A stretch of DNA of 64,000 nucleotides from assembly GCA_964491455.1 (NCBI GenBank), contig CAZBFM010000001.1, forward strand, positions 564,903 to 628,902, written 5' to 3'. Shown here piece by piece: positions 29,709-60,300 of this stretch. The position numbers and the translations under genes are program-made. The notes below the pieces were generated by a model. It had not been told where the DNA came from and did no database searches. It worked only from the letters and a program-made list of their open reading frames with translations. Each line of letters starts with the position of its first letter. Position 1 is the stretch's first letter. This DNA is from an uncultured Candidatus Saccharibacteria bacterium (GTDB lineage Bacteria; Patescibacteriota; Minisyncoccia; 2-02-FULL-40-12; GWA2-44-9).

Positions 29709-29943
29709 TCTAATAACCTGTTGATGAATAGGTCTTATCTCTGTTGATAGAACGCCTTCAATGCTCCATGAAGAGGCGTATCCCTAAAAGAACCCACAGA
29801 TACTCCCCAGCTATCCCAAAGTTATACACACAGCGATTCCATTGATTCGTCAGAGCCTGTCAGGATTTTCTCACTACGTATCCCCATATCCACACCCTTA
29901 GTAGTATGTAGTAGTATTACATTATCTTCTTACTAATTATCCG
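29709..29943. promoter_or_regulatory. putative oriC region (dnaA-dnaN intergenic) with DnaA-box-like 9-mers and an AT-rich stretch
   Basis: TTATACACA (29822-29830) and ATATCCACA (29886-29894) each differ from TTATCCACA at one position. The AT-rich run gtagtattacattatcttcttactaattat follows. Genes to the left run on the minus strand and genes to the right on the plus strand. Confidence 0.5.
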
Positions 29944-39178: not shown

Positions 39179-39240
39179 ACGCGAGAGCTTTGTTTTGTAA
39201 ACGGATTTTTGTGGACAACGTCATGCACATGTCTGAGGTG

Positions 39241-44279: not shown

Positions 44280-44537
44280 GGTGTTTCCGTCTACGATAGA
44301 GGGGTGAGTCGTTTCTGCCTATGCAGGACGGCTCTCCAGAATCGTTACAGGCGGCGTTGCAATCCAGCTCTTTATCAGGGGAGAGGAATTAAAAAATGGC
44401 CTACTTGAGCCATATATTAGTACCTCTATTACTCACTGGATTGTACATACAGTATAGCAAATATAGAGCAAAAAGTCAATAGCTGCGTACCATCACGAAA
44501 AGATGCAAAAACGCCCCTTTTGAGGCGTTTTATGGTG

Positions 44538-44608
44538 AGCGGGTAAGGGGAGTCGAACCCCTTTCTGGTCCTTGGCAAGGACCCATAATACCGGTATACG
44601 ATACCCGC
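44538..44608 (-). tRNA. tRNA-Gly (anticodon GCC)
   Basis: Anticodon loop TTGCCAA and U73 discriminator. An own promoter TTGATT-16 nt-TATACT lies at 44622-44649 on the minus strand. Confidence 0.75.
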
Positions 44609-44675
44609 AACTACGAAAGACAGTATACCACGAAGATGGAGCGAATCAATATCCAGGAGCTTGAGGGTGTGGGCG

Positions 44676-44884
44676 ATGTATGTGTCGCATAATTATCTTG
44701 TCGCACAATATAGAATACCTTGATCGGATGTGGATACCGAGTGGGGACTAGTATCGTGTCGCAAAATGAATTCTAGTGATGATGATCTGTGGACATGCGT
44801 AGCTGATAACTGACATGTCGCAAAATGGAAGTTTGTGTATCTGTTGTGTGGATACCGAGTGGGGAATACTATCGTGTCGCAAAA
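44676..44884. repeat. cluster of five GTCGCA(A/C)AAT-type motifs including two 38-bp direct repeats
   Basis: GTCGCA at 44684, 44700, 44757, 44817 and 44876. tgtggataccgagtggggaNtaNtatcgtgtcgcaaaa occurs at 44729-44766 and 44847-44884 with 36 of 38 positions identical. Confidence 0.6.
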
Positions 44885-44921
44885 GAAAACCACCCGATAA
44901 TGGATGGTTTTCTTGGTATTT

Positions 44922-44993: not shown

Positions 44994-45086
44994 CAGCTAT
45001 GACTATTGTATCCCTTCGCGCCTATGCGCTTGTGGGTACTTGGCCAGCCACTCTCTTCAGGATGCTGAATATTGAGTGGCCAAGTG

Positions 45087-45160
45087 TGGGCGATATAGGA
45101 CTCGAACCTATAACCTTCTCAACGTCAATGAGACGCTCTAGCCAATTGAGCTAATCGCCC
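45087..45160 (-). tRNA. tRNA-Val (anticodon GAC)
   Basis: Anticodon loop TTGACGT, A73. Confidence 0.75.
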
Positions 45161-45249
45161 GTATCTGATTGTTGTTCCGTGCGCCTATGCGCGTGTGGGT
45201 ACTTGGCCAGTATCCTGCCTCAACATACAGAACAAAGAGTGACCAAGTG

Positions 45250-45333
45250 TGCGCGGGAGAGGACTTGAACCTCCATGCCCTTGCGGGCGCTACCACCTCA
45301 AGGTAGTGCGTCTGCCAGTTTCGCCACCCGCGC
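45250..45333 (-). tRNA. tRNA-Leu (anticodon GAG)
   Basis: Type-II tRNA with long variable arm, anticodon loop TTGAGGT, A73. Confidence 0.75.
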
Positions 45334-57578: not shown

Positions 57579-58742
57579 ATGAAAGGATTACGCTTACCAT
57601 TACTCTTCATAGCGATTATCGGGTTGGCTCTTGGGCCTACGGTGGTTTCTGCGGCTGATTTTCTTCCTATCGTAAAATGCGGAGCAACAGGGCAGGCGCC
57701 ATGTACGCCGTGCGATATTTTTGGATCGCTCAAGAATATTATCGATTTTATTCTCAAGGGAGTTACAGGTCCGGTCGCTGCGTTTATGATTGTCTATTCT
57801 GGCGGCATGATGCTTCTGGGTGGAGGGAAACCCGAACTCTATAGTGAGGGCAAGAAGATGCTCACGAACACACTTATTGGTGTCACGATCATTCTGCTTG
57901 CGTGGGTAGTGACTAATTTCTTGATTCGCGCACTCATGCCGGGAGTGTCGACGGGCTCGTCTTGGTTTGAGTTTTCGTGTCCTGCGAGCTTATCTGCTAT
58001 CGCACCAATCGACACGACGCTGCCAAGTCCAGTTCCTAGTACAGCGGCTGACGGCTCCACTCCTGCTGCGCCCCCAACCACGAAGCCTTCGTATGCGGGT
58101 ATCTTGTGCCCAATTAGTGACAAGATAAATACATGCAGCACAGACTATGTGTGCCAAGGATGTCCAGAGTATAGAAATGCTGGATATTTTACAAAATATG
58201 GTGCAGACGCGAGAATCCTCGAGGCCATCATGGCAGTGGAGTCCTCCTGCGGAAGCGCGGGGTCGTTGGTGAGTAGTGCGCAAGCTTACGGTATAATGCA
58301 GCTTAAGACAGACACTGCCAATAAGCATGTGCAGCAGTGTCAGATCTATAAGCTGGGGGATGACGGTCAGCCACTACGAAATACAAAAACAGGACAATTT
58401 GTGTATGAGACGATTACTCCTGCGTGGTTGCTAAATAAAAATAACTTCGAAAAAAGTGTTTGCTTGGCAGCGATGGAGGTGCGCGCGGTCAAGGGCATAT
58501 GCAACAATGATATTCGAAATATTGCCGCTGGATATAATTCTGGACCTGGATGGTGCAAGATTAGCAAGGACTGTGCACAAATGCCGAGTTGTGGGGGTGG
58601 TGTGATGCGCGCCTGGGAGTGTCCATGGGATAACGCAACGCACACTGTATGTAACGAAACCCGTGAAGGTGGGGGGCTCATTGAAACGAAGCGGTACGCA
58701 CCGAAGGTCGCGACGCTAGCAACCTGCGCAAATCCAAAATGA
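57579..58742 (+). CDS. fusion of an N-terminal pilin-like two-TM domain (paralog of the 59365-60672 array) with a C-terminal SLT lytic transglycosylase domain
   Basis: N-terminus VYSGGMMLLGGGKPELYSEGKKMLTNTLIGVTIILLAWVV aligns with the four downstream paralogs. C-terminus has EAIMAVESSCGS...YGIMQL (SLT catalytic Glu-Ser and the GxMQ motif). Confidence 0.65.
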   Translation: MKGLRLPLLFIAIIGLALGPTVVSAADFLPIVKCGATGQAPCTPCDIFGSLKNIIDFILKGVTGPVAAFMIVYSGGMMLLGGGKPELYSEGKKMLTNTLIGVTIILLAWVVTNFLIRALMPGVSTGSSWFEFSCPASLSAIAPIDTTLPSPVPSTAADGSTPAAPPTTKPSYAGILCPISDKINTCSTDYVCQGCPEYRNAGYFTKYGADARILEAIMAVESSCGSAGSLVSSAQAYGIMQLKTDTANKHVQQCQIYKLGDDGQPLRNTKTGQFVYETITPAWLLNKNNFEKSVCLAAMEVRAVKGICNNDIRNIAAGYNSGPGWCKISKDCAQMPSCGGGVMRAWECPWDNATHTVCNETREGGGLIETKRYAPKVATLATCANPK

Positions 58743-59350
58743 AATATCTCCTGGTAATCGTTCTAGTGTCTGGATTGTTCATGCCTTTGTTGGCGTATGC
58801 TGAGAGCCTCTCCTACGATGAGGCGTATGGTAATTATTTGTATCAGTTTCACTTGAGCGTCTCGGGCACAACCCTGACGAGCAATGAGATCTACGATATC
58901 TTGACCGGGGATGTGCCAGCGATTCCTCGAGGCGATTGGTCGGTGATGGTCACTAATAGTCGCGGCGAAAAATTGTATTCGCAATTCTTCGACGCAGCGA
59001 AGCTTGCAGCTCAAGGCGGAGACTTTACCATTCCGTATCAAAATAGTGGAACAGAGGCGATTTTTAAAAACAGTACTGGCGTTACCGCTCTCTCTATTGA
59101 TTTAACGGGCAGTAGGGTGTGCGATGATAATGGAGTATGCTACGCAGACGCTGGAGAGAACTCTTATAACTGTCCCGGTGACTGTGGAGCTATAGCAGCG
59201 CAGCCTGCGCTGCAAGTGGCCACCGTTGGTGCTCAGATCCCGCTGTCGAGTAGGATTGGGGAGGTTGTGATGAAGCTGGCATTTGGGGTGGCGGGTATCC
59301 TTATAATCACCGGCGTTGCGCAATCGCTGGACAGGCGCCGAAGGGCATAG
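58739..59350 (+). CDS. secreted protein with C-terminal TM anchor and RRRR tail
   Basis: Signal peptide. C-terminus is LAFGVAGILIITGVAQSLDRRRRA. 4-nt overlap with the upstream gene. Confidence 0.5.
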   Translation: MKYLLVIVLVSGLFMPLLAYAESLSYDEAYGNYLYQFHLSVSGTTLTSNEIYDILTGDVPAIPRGDWSVMVTNSRGEKLYSQFFDAAKLAAQGGDFTIPYQNSGTEAIFKNSTGVTALSIDLTGSRVCDDNGVCYADAGENSYNCPGDCGAIAAQPALQVATVGAQIPLSSRIGEVVMKLAFGVAGILIITGVAQSLDRRRRA

Positions 59351-59364
59351 GATAATGACGAGGC

Positions 59365-59637
59365 ATGGCTTCTTACTCTATCGTTAATCCTCTTGGAGTT
59401 GATAATCTAGAAGATATTTTTAAGCTTCTTAGTGGGCGTTTGTTGGATGTCGTGATTCCTATTGCTGTGCTGCTCTATCTGTATGCGGGCTTTCTGTTGC
59501 TCACTGCAGCTGGGAATACTAAGAAAGTAGATGAGGCTAAGACTACATTCAAGAATACCTCGCTAGGTCTGTTGGTCATTTTAATTGGAGCTGGATTCGT
59601 CGATTTGATACGAAGCATTCTCAATGCGACTACCTAA
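59365..59637 (+). CDS. small two-TM pilin-like protein (TrbC/VirB2-like, paralog 1)
   Basis: 90 aa with two TM helices and a central charged loop (NTKKVDEAKTTFKNTSLG). Confidence 0.55.
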   Translation: MASYSIVNPLGVDNLEDIFKLLSGRLLDVVIPIAVLLYLYAGFLLLTAAGNTKKVDEAKTTFKNTSLGLLVILIGAGFVDLIRSILNATT

Positions 59638-59932
59638 TACACTATTGTCGGGAGTAACACTTACTGCTGCTGGAAGCAGTGGCTTTACCTACGATAAGCT
59701 CATTGCAATCCTCAATAATCTTGGTGATACGTTTCGTGCCTTTGGGCTGACATTGGCTACAGCCGTGGTGGTGTATTATGGATTTCAGATGGCTCTTTCA
59801 CGGGGCGATGCTGCAAAGTTTACCAAAGCAAAAGAGCACCTCATGATCGCAGCTCTGGGTGCAGCTATTGTATTTGGGATCGATACTATTATTGCAACTG
59901 TTCGGTATTTTGCGGACACGCTTACAAGCTAA
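59624..59932 (+). CDS. small two-TM pilin-like protein (paralog 2)
   Basis: VVVYYGFQMALSRGDAAKFTKAKEHLMIAALGAAIVFG. Confidence 0.55.
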   Translation: MRLPNTLLSGVTLTAAGSSGFTYDKLIAILNNLGDTFRAFGLTLATAVVVYYGFQMALSRGDAAKFTKAKEHLMIAALGAAIVFGIDTIIATVRYFADTLTS

Positions 59933-59952
59933 TTTTCTGATATACTTATTTT

Positions 59953-60300
59953 ATGAAACTCAAGCATATACTTTCGATCCAAGTCGCAATAGGAGCGCTC
60001 TTGACCATGACTTCATCGATTGTCCTAGCTGCCGGGGAGGCCCTAACACTTGAAAAGGTGGTTGGGCTCATTACCGACGGCATTACTGTCTTGATTGGGC
60101 TTGCAGTGACGGTGACCATCGGCATTCTCGTATATGGAGGATTTCAGATGGCGTATTCACGTGGAGAAAAAAAAGATTTCGATGCGGGAAAAGAGACTAT
60201 TAAAAATGCATCCATTGGTTTATTGGTCATCTTGGGGGTTGGAATAATAATCGCTACAATAAGCAGTATCGCGCAGAATCCATCGAGTATTGTGCGCTAG
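59953..60300 (+). CDS. small two-TM pilin-like protein (paralog 3)
   Basis: Signal peptide and ILVYGGFQMAYSRGEKKDFDAGKETIKNASIGLLVILGVG. Confidence 0.55.
   Translation: MKLKHILSIQVAIGALLTMTSSIVLAAGEALTLEKVVGLITDGITVLIGLAVTVTIGILVYGGFQMAYSRGEKKDFDAGKETIKNASIGLLVILGVGIIIATISSIAQNPSSIVR

Follow-up and report, generated by a model that had tools for sequence, protein, structure and literature searches.

The chromosome segment examined here, 64 kb of contig CAZBFM010000001.1 (these 64 kb being called the window), carries an intergenic array of short boxes that lies between the promoter of a tRNA-Gly(GCC) gene and the terminator of a tRNA-Leu/Val/Phe operon, the operon itself following rplS. The segment belongs to the Patescibacteria (Paceibacterota), and the closest public genome is a metagenome-assembled genome of a Candidatus Paceibacterota whose rplS is 99% identical. 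As judged by comparison with related genomes, the array is a single-locus, lineage-conserved set of composite modules made of putative binding sites. The reading that we tentatively prefer is that of a cluster of DnaA boxes with a new companion motif, which would ancestrally have controlled a leaderless GGCT-like gene and would now stand orphaned and amplified near the origin of replication.

Architecture and conservation of the array

Each module is composed, on the + strand, of an A box (TGTGGAYAN), an A' box (GGGGATAA-like) 13 bp further on and, 16 bp after that, a B box (GTCGC-R-M-AA-Y), A and A' being head-to-tail 9-mers. Ahead of the three modules come a weak A'-like 9-mer (TGTGGGCGA), the position of which is not kept in every relative, and two B boxes (B1 and B2) at successive steps of 16 bp, the first module starting 29 bp after B2. 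The spacers between modules are ca. 20 bp long and mutually unrelated in the window, and the array, with a G+C content of 43%, is not markedly AT-rich. The original prediction, made from this DNA alone, had noticed five GTCGCA boxes, and indeed TGTCGCANAA is found five times in the 64 kb, always on the + strand and between 44683 and 44884, against 0.92 copies expected from shuffled sequences (0/100 shuffles reached five). It had also described two nearly identical 38-bp direct repeats, 118 bp apart and close to the tRNA-Gly promoter; both are there (44729-44766 and 44847-44884, 95% identical), with the promoter on one side and the operon terminator on the other. What had been overlooked is a third, degenerate copy (61% identical) exactly halfway between them, at 44788-44825. 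The repeats, held to be unevenly spaced, follow each other with a start-to-start spacing of 58/59/59 bp, and Tandem Repeats Finder gives a period of 59 bp. The reappearance of the same core near tRNA-Leu(TAG), at ca. 60870, turned out to be a chance 7-mer, as the site reads GTGTCGCGGACG without the rest of the box and GTGTCGC occurs 17 times in the window.

A profile of the module built only from the relatives matched the three modules of the window (E = 1e-7, 5e-7, and 2e-4). There was no further full module in the 64 kb, the next match being a half-module at 44691-44713 (E = 0.07) and the rest outside the array having E >= 1. With one mismatch allowed, the B pattern was found 44 times in the window against 38 expected, the five array copies included, and it was not enriched elsewhere.

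The relatives were gathered in three ways, by a genome scan with rplS, by a metagenome scan with the B1-B2 pattern (four true matches and four chance matches) and from contigs encoding homologues of the gene found downstream of most arrays, the GGCT-like gene described below. Exact-protein look-ups of the flanking genes returned the same organism or contigs broken at the tRNAs and nothing else, and the one distant GGCT homologue looked up was on a contig without upstream DNA. We have compared 15 arrays, that of the window and those of L004, L009-L013, L062, L064, L067-L069, L072, L073, and L076. Duplicates were left out of the count (L063, the same as L011, and L070 and L071, the same as L062), and L074 and L075 keep only part of the array. 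The ribosomal protein L19 of the array-bearing relatives is as little as 64-74% identical to that of the window. A conserved synteny runs through DoxX, an aminotransferase, tRNA-Arg, tRNA-Lys, a 181-aa protein, tRNA-Gly, the array, GGCT, the tRNAs, and rplS, and tRNA-Gly(GCC) adjoins the array in 15/15. The direction of the boxes relative to the downstream gene or, where this has been lost, to its former site, is also constant (15/15), whereas the orientation of tRNA-Gly(GCC) varies, being co-directional in L009 and L012, with the array directly downstream of its terminator, and divergent elsewhere.

The geometry of the modules is tight (21 modules from 13 genomes), with A to B at 29 +/- 1 bp, A to A' at 13 +/- 1 bp, and A' to B at 15-16 bp. 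Around them, B1 and B2 are 16 bp apart, B2 is usually 29 bp from the first A, and the distance from a B to the next A is looser (24-30 bp). The consensus of the module reads TGTGGAtA.Cggg.gggGataA......tGTCGCAcAA, in which B is the best-conserved box, its GTCGC being nearly invariant and likewise its two As. The B2 string TCGCACAATAT is identical in L009, L011, L012, L013, L062, L064, L067, L072, and L073. Of the 41 strict B boxes counted in 185 kb of DNA from array-bearing genomes, 37 were inside arrays, and the four outside compare with 4.4 expected by chance over the whole 185 kb. The suggestion that small repeated elements form a family linked to tRNA genes finds no support in this distribution, since outside the arrays the boxes occur at the rate of chance, the copy near tRNA-Leu(TAG) is spurious and every array is at one syntenic locus by tRNA-Gly(GCC). 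The other suggestion, an array of regulatory protein-binding sites, is the one favoured by the short boxes, their fixed spacing, the unconstrained sequence between them, the conservation across genomes and the absence of a conserved RNA structure, and we regard the boxes as putative sites of this kind.

Small local inversions recur around the array. The tRNA-Gly gene and the whole tRNA-Leu/Val/Phe unit are separately inverted in some relatives (L009, L012, and L014 versus the window), with no change in the order of the protein genes on either side. In the 95%-identical relative L004 there is an insertion of ca. 205 bp directly after tRNA-Gly (L004:1816-2019), flanked by two copies of CCCCTTACCCGCTCA, which is the tRNA 3' end, with its own terminator after each copy. 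The arrangement resembles the trace of an integration event at this tRNA.

The GGCT-like gene, its loss and selection on the boxes

In 12 of the 15 arrays the boxes are directly followed by a GGCT/AIG2-like gene of 121-127 residues. A deaminase gene follows the array in L010 instead, and in the window and L004 no gene follows it (the GGCT gene was not found in the window by tblastn). The array has been kept without the GGCT gene in two lineages, that of the window and L004 and, independently, that of L010. Wherever the gene is present it has the same kind of promoter, TTGATA or a near variant, a 17-bp spacer and a TGn-extended -10 (nAnAAT), with the ATG six bases on. As the -10 is only six bases ahead of the ATG, the GGCT mRNA is predicted to be leaderless, and since this promoter is downstream of the array, by the ATG, the array lies upstream of the promoter and outside the mRNA. 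Most of these promoters have an A box (TGTGGATAT) inside the spacer between -35 and -10, the classic position for a repressor, and the -35 itself sits within TGTTGATA, an A box with one mismatch.

The GGCT genes of L011, L013, L062, L067-L069, and L072-L076 all appear leaderless, and public calls of the gene are often extended N-terminally into the array (138-186 aa versus about 122-126 aa). In L074 and L075 a gene of 275 aa with no Pfam match has been inserted between tRNA-Gly and the GGCT promoter (L074/L075:226-1053), where it replaces the tRNA-proximal, B-box part of the array.

Despite the loss of the gene, the array of the window has three modules, more than any relative. Compared with L004 (ca. 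95% identical over the region) it has 2 substitutions in 104 box nucleotides versus 13 in 98 spacer nucleotides (Fisher p = 0.0019), and both box changes are compatible with the consensus, either staying inside it or bringing the box closer to it (in a B box the Y position has gone from T to C, and elsewhere GCTGATAAC has become GCGGATAAC). The pattern of substitution shows that the boxes in the window are still under purifying selection. Together, the substitutions that spare the boxes, the larger number of modules and the retention of the array in L010 argue against a neutral relic and for a role independent of GGCT regulation. A cis-element that has outlived the gene it preceded, with selection continuing, argues for a role beyond the control of a local gene.

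Putative binders and rival explanations

Both A and A' are similar to the DnaA box (TTATCCACA, or TGTGGATAA when read on the other strand). The A boxes match TGTGGATAA at a mean of 6.8 of the nine positions and the best A' 9-mers at 6.7, versus 4.5 for a random best-of-12, and the array clusters two 8/9, one 7/9, and three 6/9 boxes within 140 bp, all in one orientation. Along the A box, positions 1-6 and 8 are well conserved and positions 7 and 9 poorly so. The DnaA consensus is TTWTNCACA, which this profile mirrors except that the N position is here fixed as C. In L074 and L075, where there is no B box, the GGCT promoter is closely preceded by two perfect TGTGGATAA boxes with 13 bp from one to the other. 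The DnaA of the window keeps the base-contacting motif (GGRDHSTVIHA versus GGRDHTTVLHA in Escherichia coli, aligned to domain IV, 1J1V) and also retains the PRQ arginine and the SxPEIG proline. The core of the origin (oriC) is found in the dnaA-dnaN spacer, with boxes TTATACACA (29822), GTATCCCCA (29878), and ATATCCACA (29886) followed by a run of trios of the TAG type (TAGTAGTATGTAGTAGTAT, 29899-29917); the cumulative GC skew is lowest at 28-30 kb. On the minus strand this origin has, in order, TGTGGATAT and GGGGATAC, which is the same A plus A' pair as in the array. The array is noncoding and near this origin, 14.8 kb to its right. As a separate observation, a good DnaA-box-like 9-mer (TGTGGACAA, reverse complement TTGTCCACA) is present at 39210-39218, ca. 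25 bp upstream of the -35 of a predicted nusA promoter (TTGACC-17-TATTAT).

The B box is not palindromic. We scanned ca. 30 open reading frames (ORFs) of the window with Pfam, including those within ca. 10 kb of the array, and DNA-binding or regulator domains were found only in DnaA and in a protein of the YebC/TACO1 family. The cognate DNA-binding protein that the original prediction suggested looking for has in DnaA a candidate for A and A', B being without a known binder. The IHF site pattern WATCARNNNNTTR had no match in 2.9 kb of arrays from the 15 genomes. B resembles the Spo0A 0A box, the MtrA box and the P1 parS box B, which we treat as leads only. It was also considered as a sigma-70 -10 element, with the modules as tandem promoters, and rejected. 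Such an element needs an invariant A at -11 and an invariant T at -7, together with a -35 16-18 bp upstream or a TG at -15/-14, but in B the -11 equivalent is A or G, the -7 equivalent is T, C, or G, and neither a -35 nor a correctly placed TG was found.

Beyond the anatomy, the conservation and the selection shown above, we infer who binds and with what consequence, as follows. Ancestrally, the array would have stood upstream of a leaderless GGCT-like gene and controlled it, as in the relatives; this genome would since have lost the gene and amplified the modules to three, with the boxes still under purifying selection. DnaA, encoded 15 kb away beside oriC, would occupy A and A', and a second sequence-specific protein would occupy B, the two forming a phased nucleoprotein complex. 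Without a gene to regulate, the array would most plausibly be a DnaA-box cluster near the origin that could buffer or modulate DnaA and possibly affect the transcription of the flanking tRNA units.

Several points weigh against this scenario. For many A and A' boxes the match to the DnaA consensus is 6-7/9 only, and the window as a whole has no excess of 9-mers that differ from TTATCCACA by at most one base (12 found, 12.2 expected). The low-affinity sites of the E. coli oriC are phased by 11 bp, unlike the 13- and 16-bp spacings here. B, the most conserved of the boxes, is without a known binder and missing from oriC, and the statement that the array is a single locus covers, in this genome, only the 64 kb of the window. 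Because A conserves mainly its TGTGG half (TGTGG-A-A) and A' mainly its GGATAA half, it is possible that they are bound by a different protein with a split site. One alternative would keep the conserved array and have it bound by one or more dedicated regulators unrelated to DnaA, for example a single multidomain or oligomeric factor reading A, A', and B as one 39-bp site, with a coincidental likeness to DnaA boxes and an ancestral role limited to GGCT control. The fixed 29-bp distance from A to B suggests that the whole module is read by one complex, and the best-conserved box is precisely the one that is not DnaA-like. However, such a regulator would leave to coincidence the perfect TGTGGATAA pair of L074 and L075, found without any B box, the agreement of the A profile with the positions contacted by DnaA and the A plus A' pair of the host oriC. 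Neither does it sit well with the Pfam scan, in which no regulator domain appeared besides DnaA and the YebC/TACO1-family protein, or with an array that outlasts the gene. We consider it somewhat unlikely.

The array could also be the leftover upstream region of the deleted GGCT gene, its units multiplied by replication slippage and without present function. The absence of the gene from the window, the 95% identity of the two 38-mers, which fits a recent duplication, and the last B box abutting a terminator with no gene downstream are what one would expect of such a relic. But the substitutions relative to L004 avoid the boxes, L010 keeps its array independently of the gene and the two near-identical modules stand between spacers of unrelated sequence, which speaks against a simple recent tandem duplication, and a relic appears improbable to us. 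More remote is an element acting as RNA, be it tandem small RNAs, a structured leader or a riboswitch across the repeats. Single units can form short hairpins (GACATG/CATGTC in module 2, GATAC/GTATC in module 1) and a terminator-type hairpin comes after the array, but the possible stems are in different registers from one unit to another, the RNAalifold consensus structure of 17 equal-length modules is empty on both strands (unremarkable mean z-scores of -0.75 and -0.44), and inside the modules no Rfam match falls below E = 2, with only tRNAs reaching the gathering score and no credible match up to E = 10. Moreover, the GGCT promoter of the relatives, 6 nt before the ATG, leaves the array outside the mRNA, and no sigma-70-type promoter of the + strand reads the modules, the sole promoter-like site (44734..44707, 9/12) being on the opposite strand. 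We hold this explanation to be very unlikely. The one we find hardest to credit is a mobile or replicon feature, such as the transposase binding sites in an end of the Tn7 or Mu kind, arm sites for an integrase that attaches at a tRNA, iterons like those of plasmids or a degenerate array of clustered regularly interspaced short palindromic repeats (CRISPR). Direct repeats by tRNA genes, which are common integration targets, the regular spacing, and units starting with TGT, as Tn7-like ends do, would fit it. Yet the array keeps its syntenic position across relatives with the distant L19 sequences mentioned above, the modules are all on one strand with no inverted partner array in the window (a transposase-bearing element would have two inverted ends and variable insertion sites), the flanks hold no transposase, integrase, rep, or cas gene in the Pfam scan and the B1-B2 pattern had no match in viral contigs. 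Plasmid iterons are nearly identical direct repeats of 17-22 bp beside a rep gene and an AT-rich unwinding element. The iteron-like character once proposed is not borne out, as every unit has three different boxes and variable filler and there is neither a rep gene nor an unwinding element. That the array is not CRISPR-like was a sound conclusion drawn from a wrong reason. The spacing is regular, and what excludes CRISPR is that only short boxes are conserved in each unit, whereas CRISPR repeats, of at least 23 nt, are conserved over their full length and come with unique spacers and with cas genes or a leader; besides, the middle copy is only 61% identical, the Pfam-scanned ORFs include no cas genes and no CRISPR repeat family matched inside the array (one CRISPR-DR53 match fell outside it, at 44508-44533, E = 0.94).

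Other readings of the repeats were tried and discarded. Minus-strand promoters directed towards tRNA-Gly amount to one weak site (TCCACA-16-TATATT), of which the other units have no copy, and in two relatives, L009 and L012, the orientation of the tRNA with respect to the array is reversed. The micro-ORFs that could begin at the ATG overlapping AAAATG are not conserved in the relatives. The DnaA trio motif is of the TAG/TAA type, and GATGATGAT, in the spacer between modules 1 and 2, has the wrong phase and strand to be read as such, in a stretch not kept in other units. A dif/Xer site (GTGCGCATAAT-like) would need an inverted XerD arm, which is not there, and the location is near the origin. 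Resemblances to the NrdR, PurR, CtsR, PhoB, and MarA boxes are half-site or partial matches with the wrong spacing. A weak C/D-box small RNA match in the spacer between modules 1 and 2 (44764-44808, archaeal model sR18, E = 2.1) stems from GTGATGA and CTGA strings; it is not conserved in other units and we take it as chance.

Comparison with known systems

For the preferred reading, a DnaA-box cluster with a companion motif, the nearest known systems are the datA locus of E. coli and the DnaA-box clusters of Bacillus. The datA locus is likewise a noncoding cluster of DnaA boxes of mixed affinity, outside oriC, with a site for a second DNA-binding protein. It is intergenic and adjoins the tRNA-Gly(GCC) operon and its terminator (PMC10950094). 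The array of L009 and L012 is, like datA, directly downstream of a tRNA-Gly(GCC) terminator. The second site differs, being IHF in datA and here B, a different motif, and none of the 15 arrays contains the IHF consensus, so that an IHF (or Fis) site of the datA/DARS2 type was not found by this pattern. The array also differs in its repeated modules, in its fixed 13/16-bp geometry and in its ancestral context, a gene promoter. It is a long shot that the array might be the functional counterpart in Patescibacteria of datA or DARS, i.e., a dedicated noncoding locus near oriC, coupled to the tRNA-Gly(GCC) unit, at which DnaA and a lineage-specific B-box protein would set the level or the nucleotide state of the initiator; the shared tRNA-Gly neighbour may be a coincidence. 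If it were true, the retention and amplification of the array after the loss of GGCT would reflect a role in initiator control, and the tRNA-Gly(GCC) neighbour common to both loci would suggest that the transcription of tRNAs has repeatedly become coupled to the control of initiation.

At the DnaA-box clusters of Bacillus subtilis (sda, ywlC, yydA, dnaA), DnaA is stably bound and the neighbouring gene is regulated as well (PMC2533591). Like the array, they are intergenic groups of DnaA boxes, generally close to oriC, and the A box within the GGCT promoter spacer of the relatives would fit DnaA as a repressor. They differ in consisting of DnaA boxes alone, irregularly spaced and with no strictly conserved companion box, and in that binding was demonstrated by chromatin affinity precipitation on microarrays (ChAP-chip), whereas in our array it is predicted from the boxes.

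Two further likenesses are looser. The parS site of plasmid P1, one of several composite centromere or operator arrays, is made of box A, box B (TCGCCA) and an IHF site, and the similarity is architectural only, two types of box at fixed positions read as one nucleoprotein complex, with a box B that loosely resembles GTCGCA. In our case there are no adjacent par genes and no IHF site, and the locus is chromosomal, conserved and upstream of a metabolic gene. The Spo0A 0A box (TGTCGAA) and the MtrA box (GTCACA) are response-regulator sites within origins. The B box, (T)GTCGCA-AA, is about one base away from both and, like them, is interleaved with DnaA boxes. However, the Spo0A and MtrA sites lie in oriC, from which B is absent here, and belong to regulators of Firmicutes and Actinobacteria; the 16-bp spacing of B contrasts with the 10-11 bp of OmpR-family direct repeats, and no regulator of this type was identified among the Pfam-scanned ORFs.

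Patescibacteria have tiny genomes with few recognisable regulators and are mostly uncultured, and the control of their replication and transcription is hardly known. The locus described here offers a conserved noncoding array of precise geometry, a plausible known binder (DnaA) for two of its box types and a new, strictly conserved 10-bp motif (B). If DnaA does bind it, this would apparently be the first candidate DnaA-regulatory locus outside oriC in the phylum; a full-text literature search found no paper joining "DnaA box" with "Patescibacteria."

Feature coordinates and neighbouring sequences

Table 1. Features of the array, its flanks and the origin region, with positions in the window.
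Feature	Position	Strand	Sequence and remarks
dnaA	28326..29708	+	Pfam Bac_DnaA, Bac_DnaA_C, DnaA_N; candidate binder of A and A'
oriC core	29878..29917	+	GTATCCCCA and ATATCCACA, then TAGTAGTATGTAGTAGTAT; reference for the host's own DnaA boxes
tRNA-Gly(GCC)	44537..44608	-	adjoins the array in every related genome
tRNA-Gly(GCC) promoter	44649..44622	-	TTGATT-16-TG-TATACT; diverges from the array
Weak A'-like 9-mer	44668..44676	+	TGTGGGCGA; 16 bp upstream of B1; 6/9 versus TGTGGATAA
B box 1 (B1)	44684..44693	+	GTCGCATAAT; B1-B2 pair, 16 bp start to start, kept in 13 other arrays
B box 2 (B2)	44700..44711	+	GTCGCACAATAT
Module 1 (first 38-bp repeat)	44729..44767	+	E = 4.6e-7, profile from other genomes only
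Module 1, A box	44729-44737	+	TGTGGATAC
Module 1, A' box	44742-44750	+	TGGGGACTA
Module 1, B box	44758-44767	+	GTCGCAAAAT
Module 2 (degenerate)	44788..44826	+	E = 2e-4 versus the relatives' module profile
Module 2, A box		+	TGTGGACAT
Module 2, A' box	44801-44809	+	AGCTGATAA
Module 2, B box	44817-44826	+	GTCGCAAAAT
Module 3 (second 38-bp repeat)	44847..44885	+	E = 1.1e-7 versus the relatives' module profile
Module 3, A box		+	TGTGGATAC
Module 3, A' box	44860-44868	+	TGGGGAATA
Module 3, B box	44876-44885	+	GTCGCAAAAG
Terminator-type hairpin	44883..44914	- (operon end)	13-nt arms, 92% complementary, 6 nt apart; ends the tRNA-Leu/Val/Phe operon

The terminator-type hairpin at the end of the array is outside the criteria of the scan that gave the tRNA-Gly promoter and came from the analysis that also gave the 38-bp repeats. 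Its T-tract overlaps the last B box, and it is retained in L004 with changed loop and stem bases.

Beyond this hairpin there is a 92-nt direct repeat (45018-45109 and 45181-45272, 77% identical) that covers the 3' portions of the tRNA-Phe/Val/Leu genes together with their spacers. Both copies contain a long hairpin (CTTGGCCA...TGGCCAAG) as well as an A-box-like motif, TGTGGGTAC, and this repeat is probably the reason why assemblies break at 45018-45272. On the other side of tRNA-Gly, on the minus strand at 44388-44479, a short conserved unit lies upstream of the gene for the 181-aa secreted protein. It consists of a promoter (TTGACTTTT-N-TGcTATACT), ca. 55 nt starting with GTATGTACAATCCAG and an ATGGCT...AGGCCAT hairpin with a T-run. 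Both sequence and hairpin are kept in 11 genomes; Rfam has no match to the unit, a candidate small RNA or attenuator leader. Further along the window (57579-60300), downstream of a solute-binding protein gene, there is a run of small proteins with T4SS-pilin-like domains beside a protein with an SLT transglycosylase domain.

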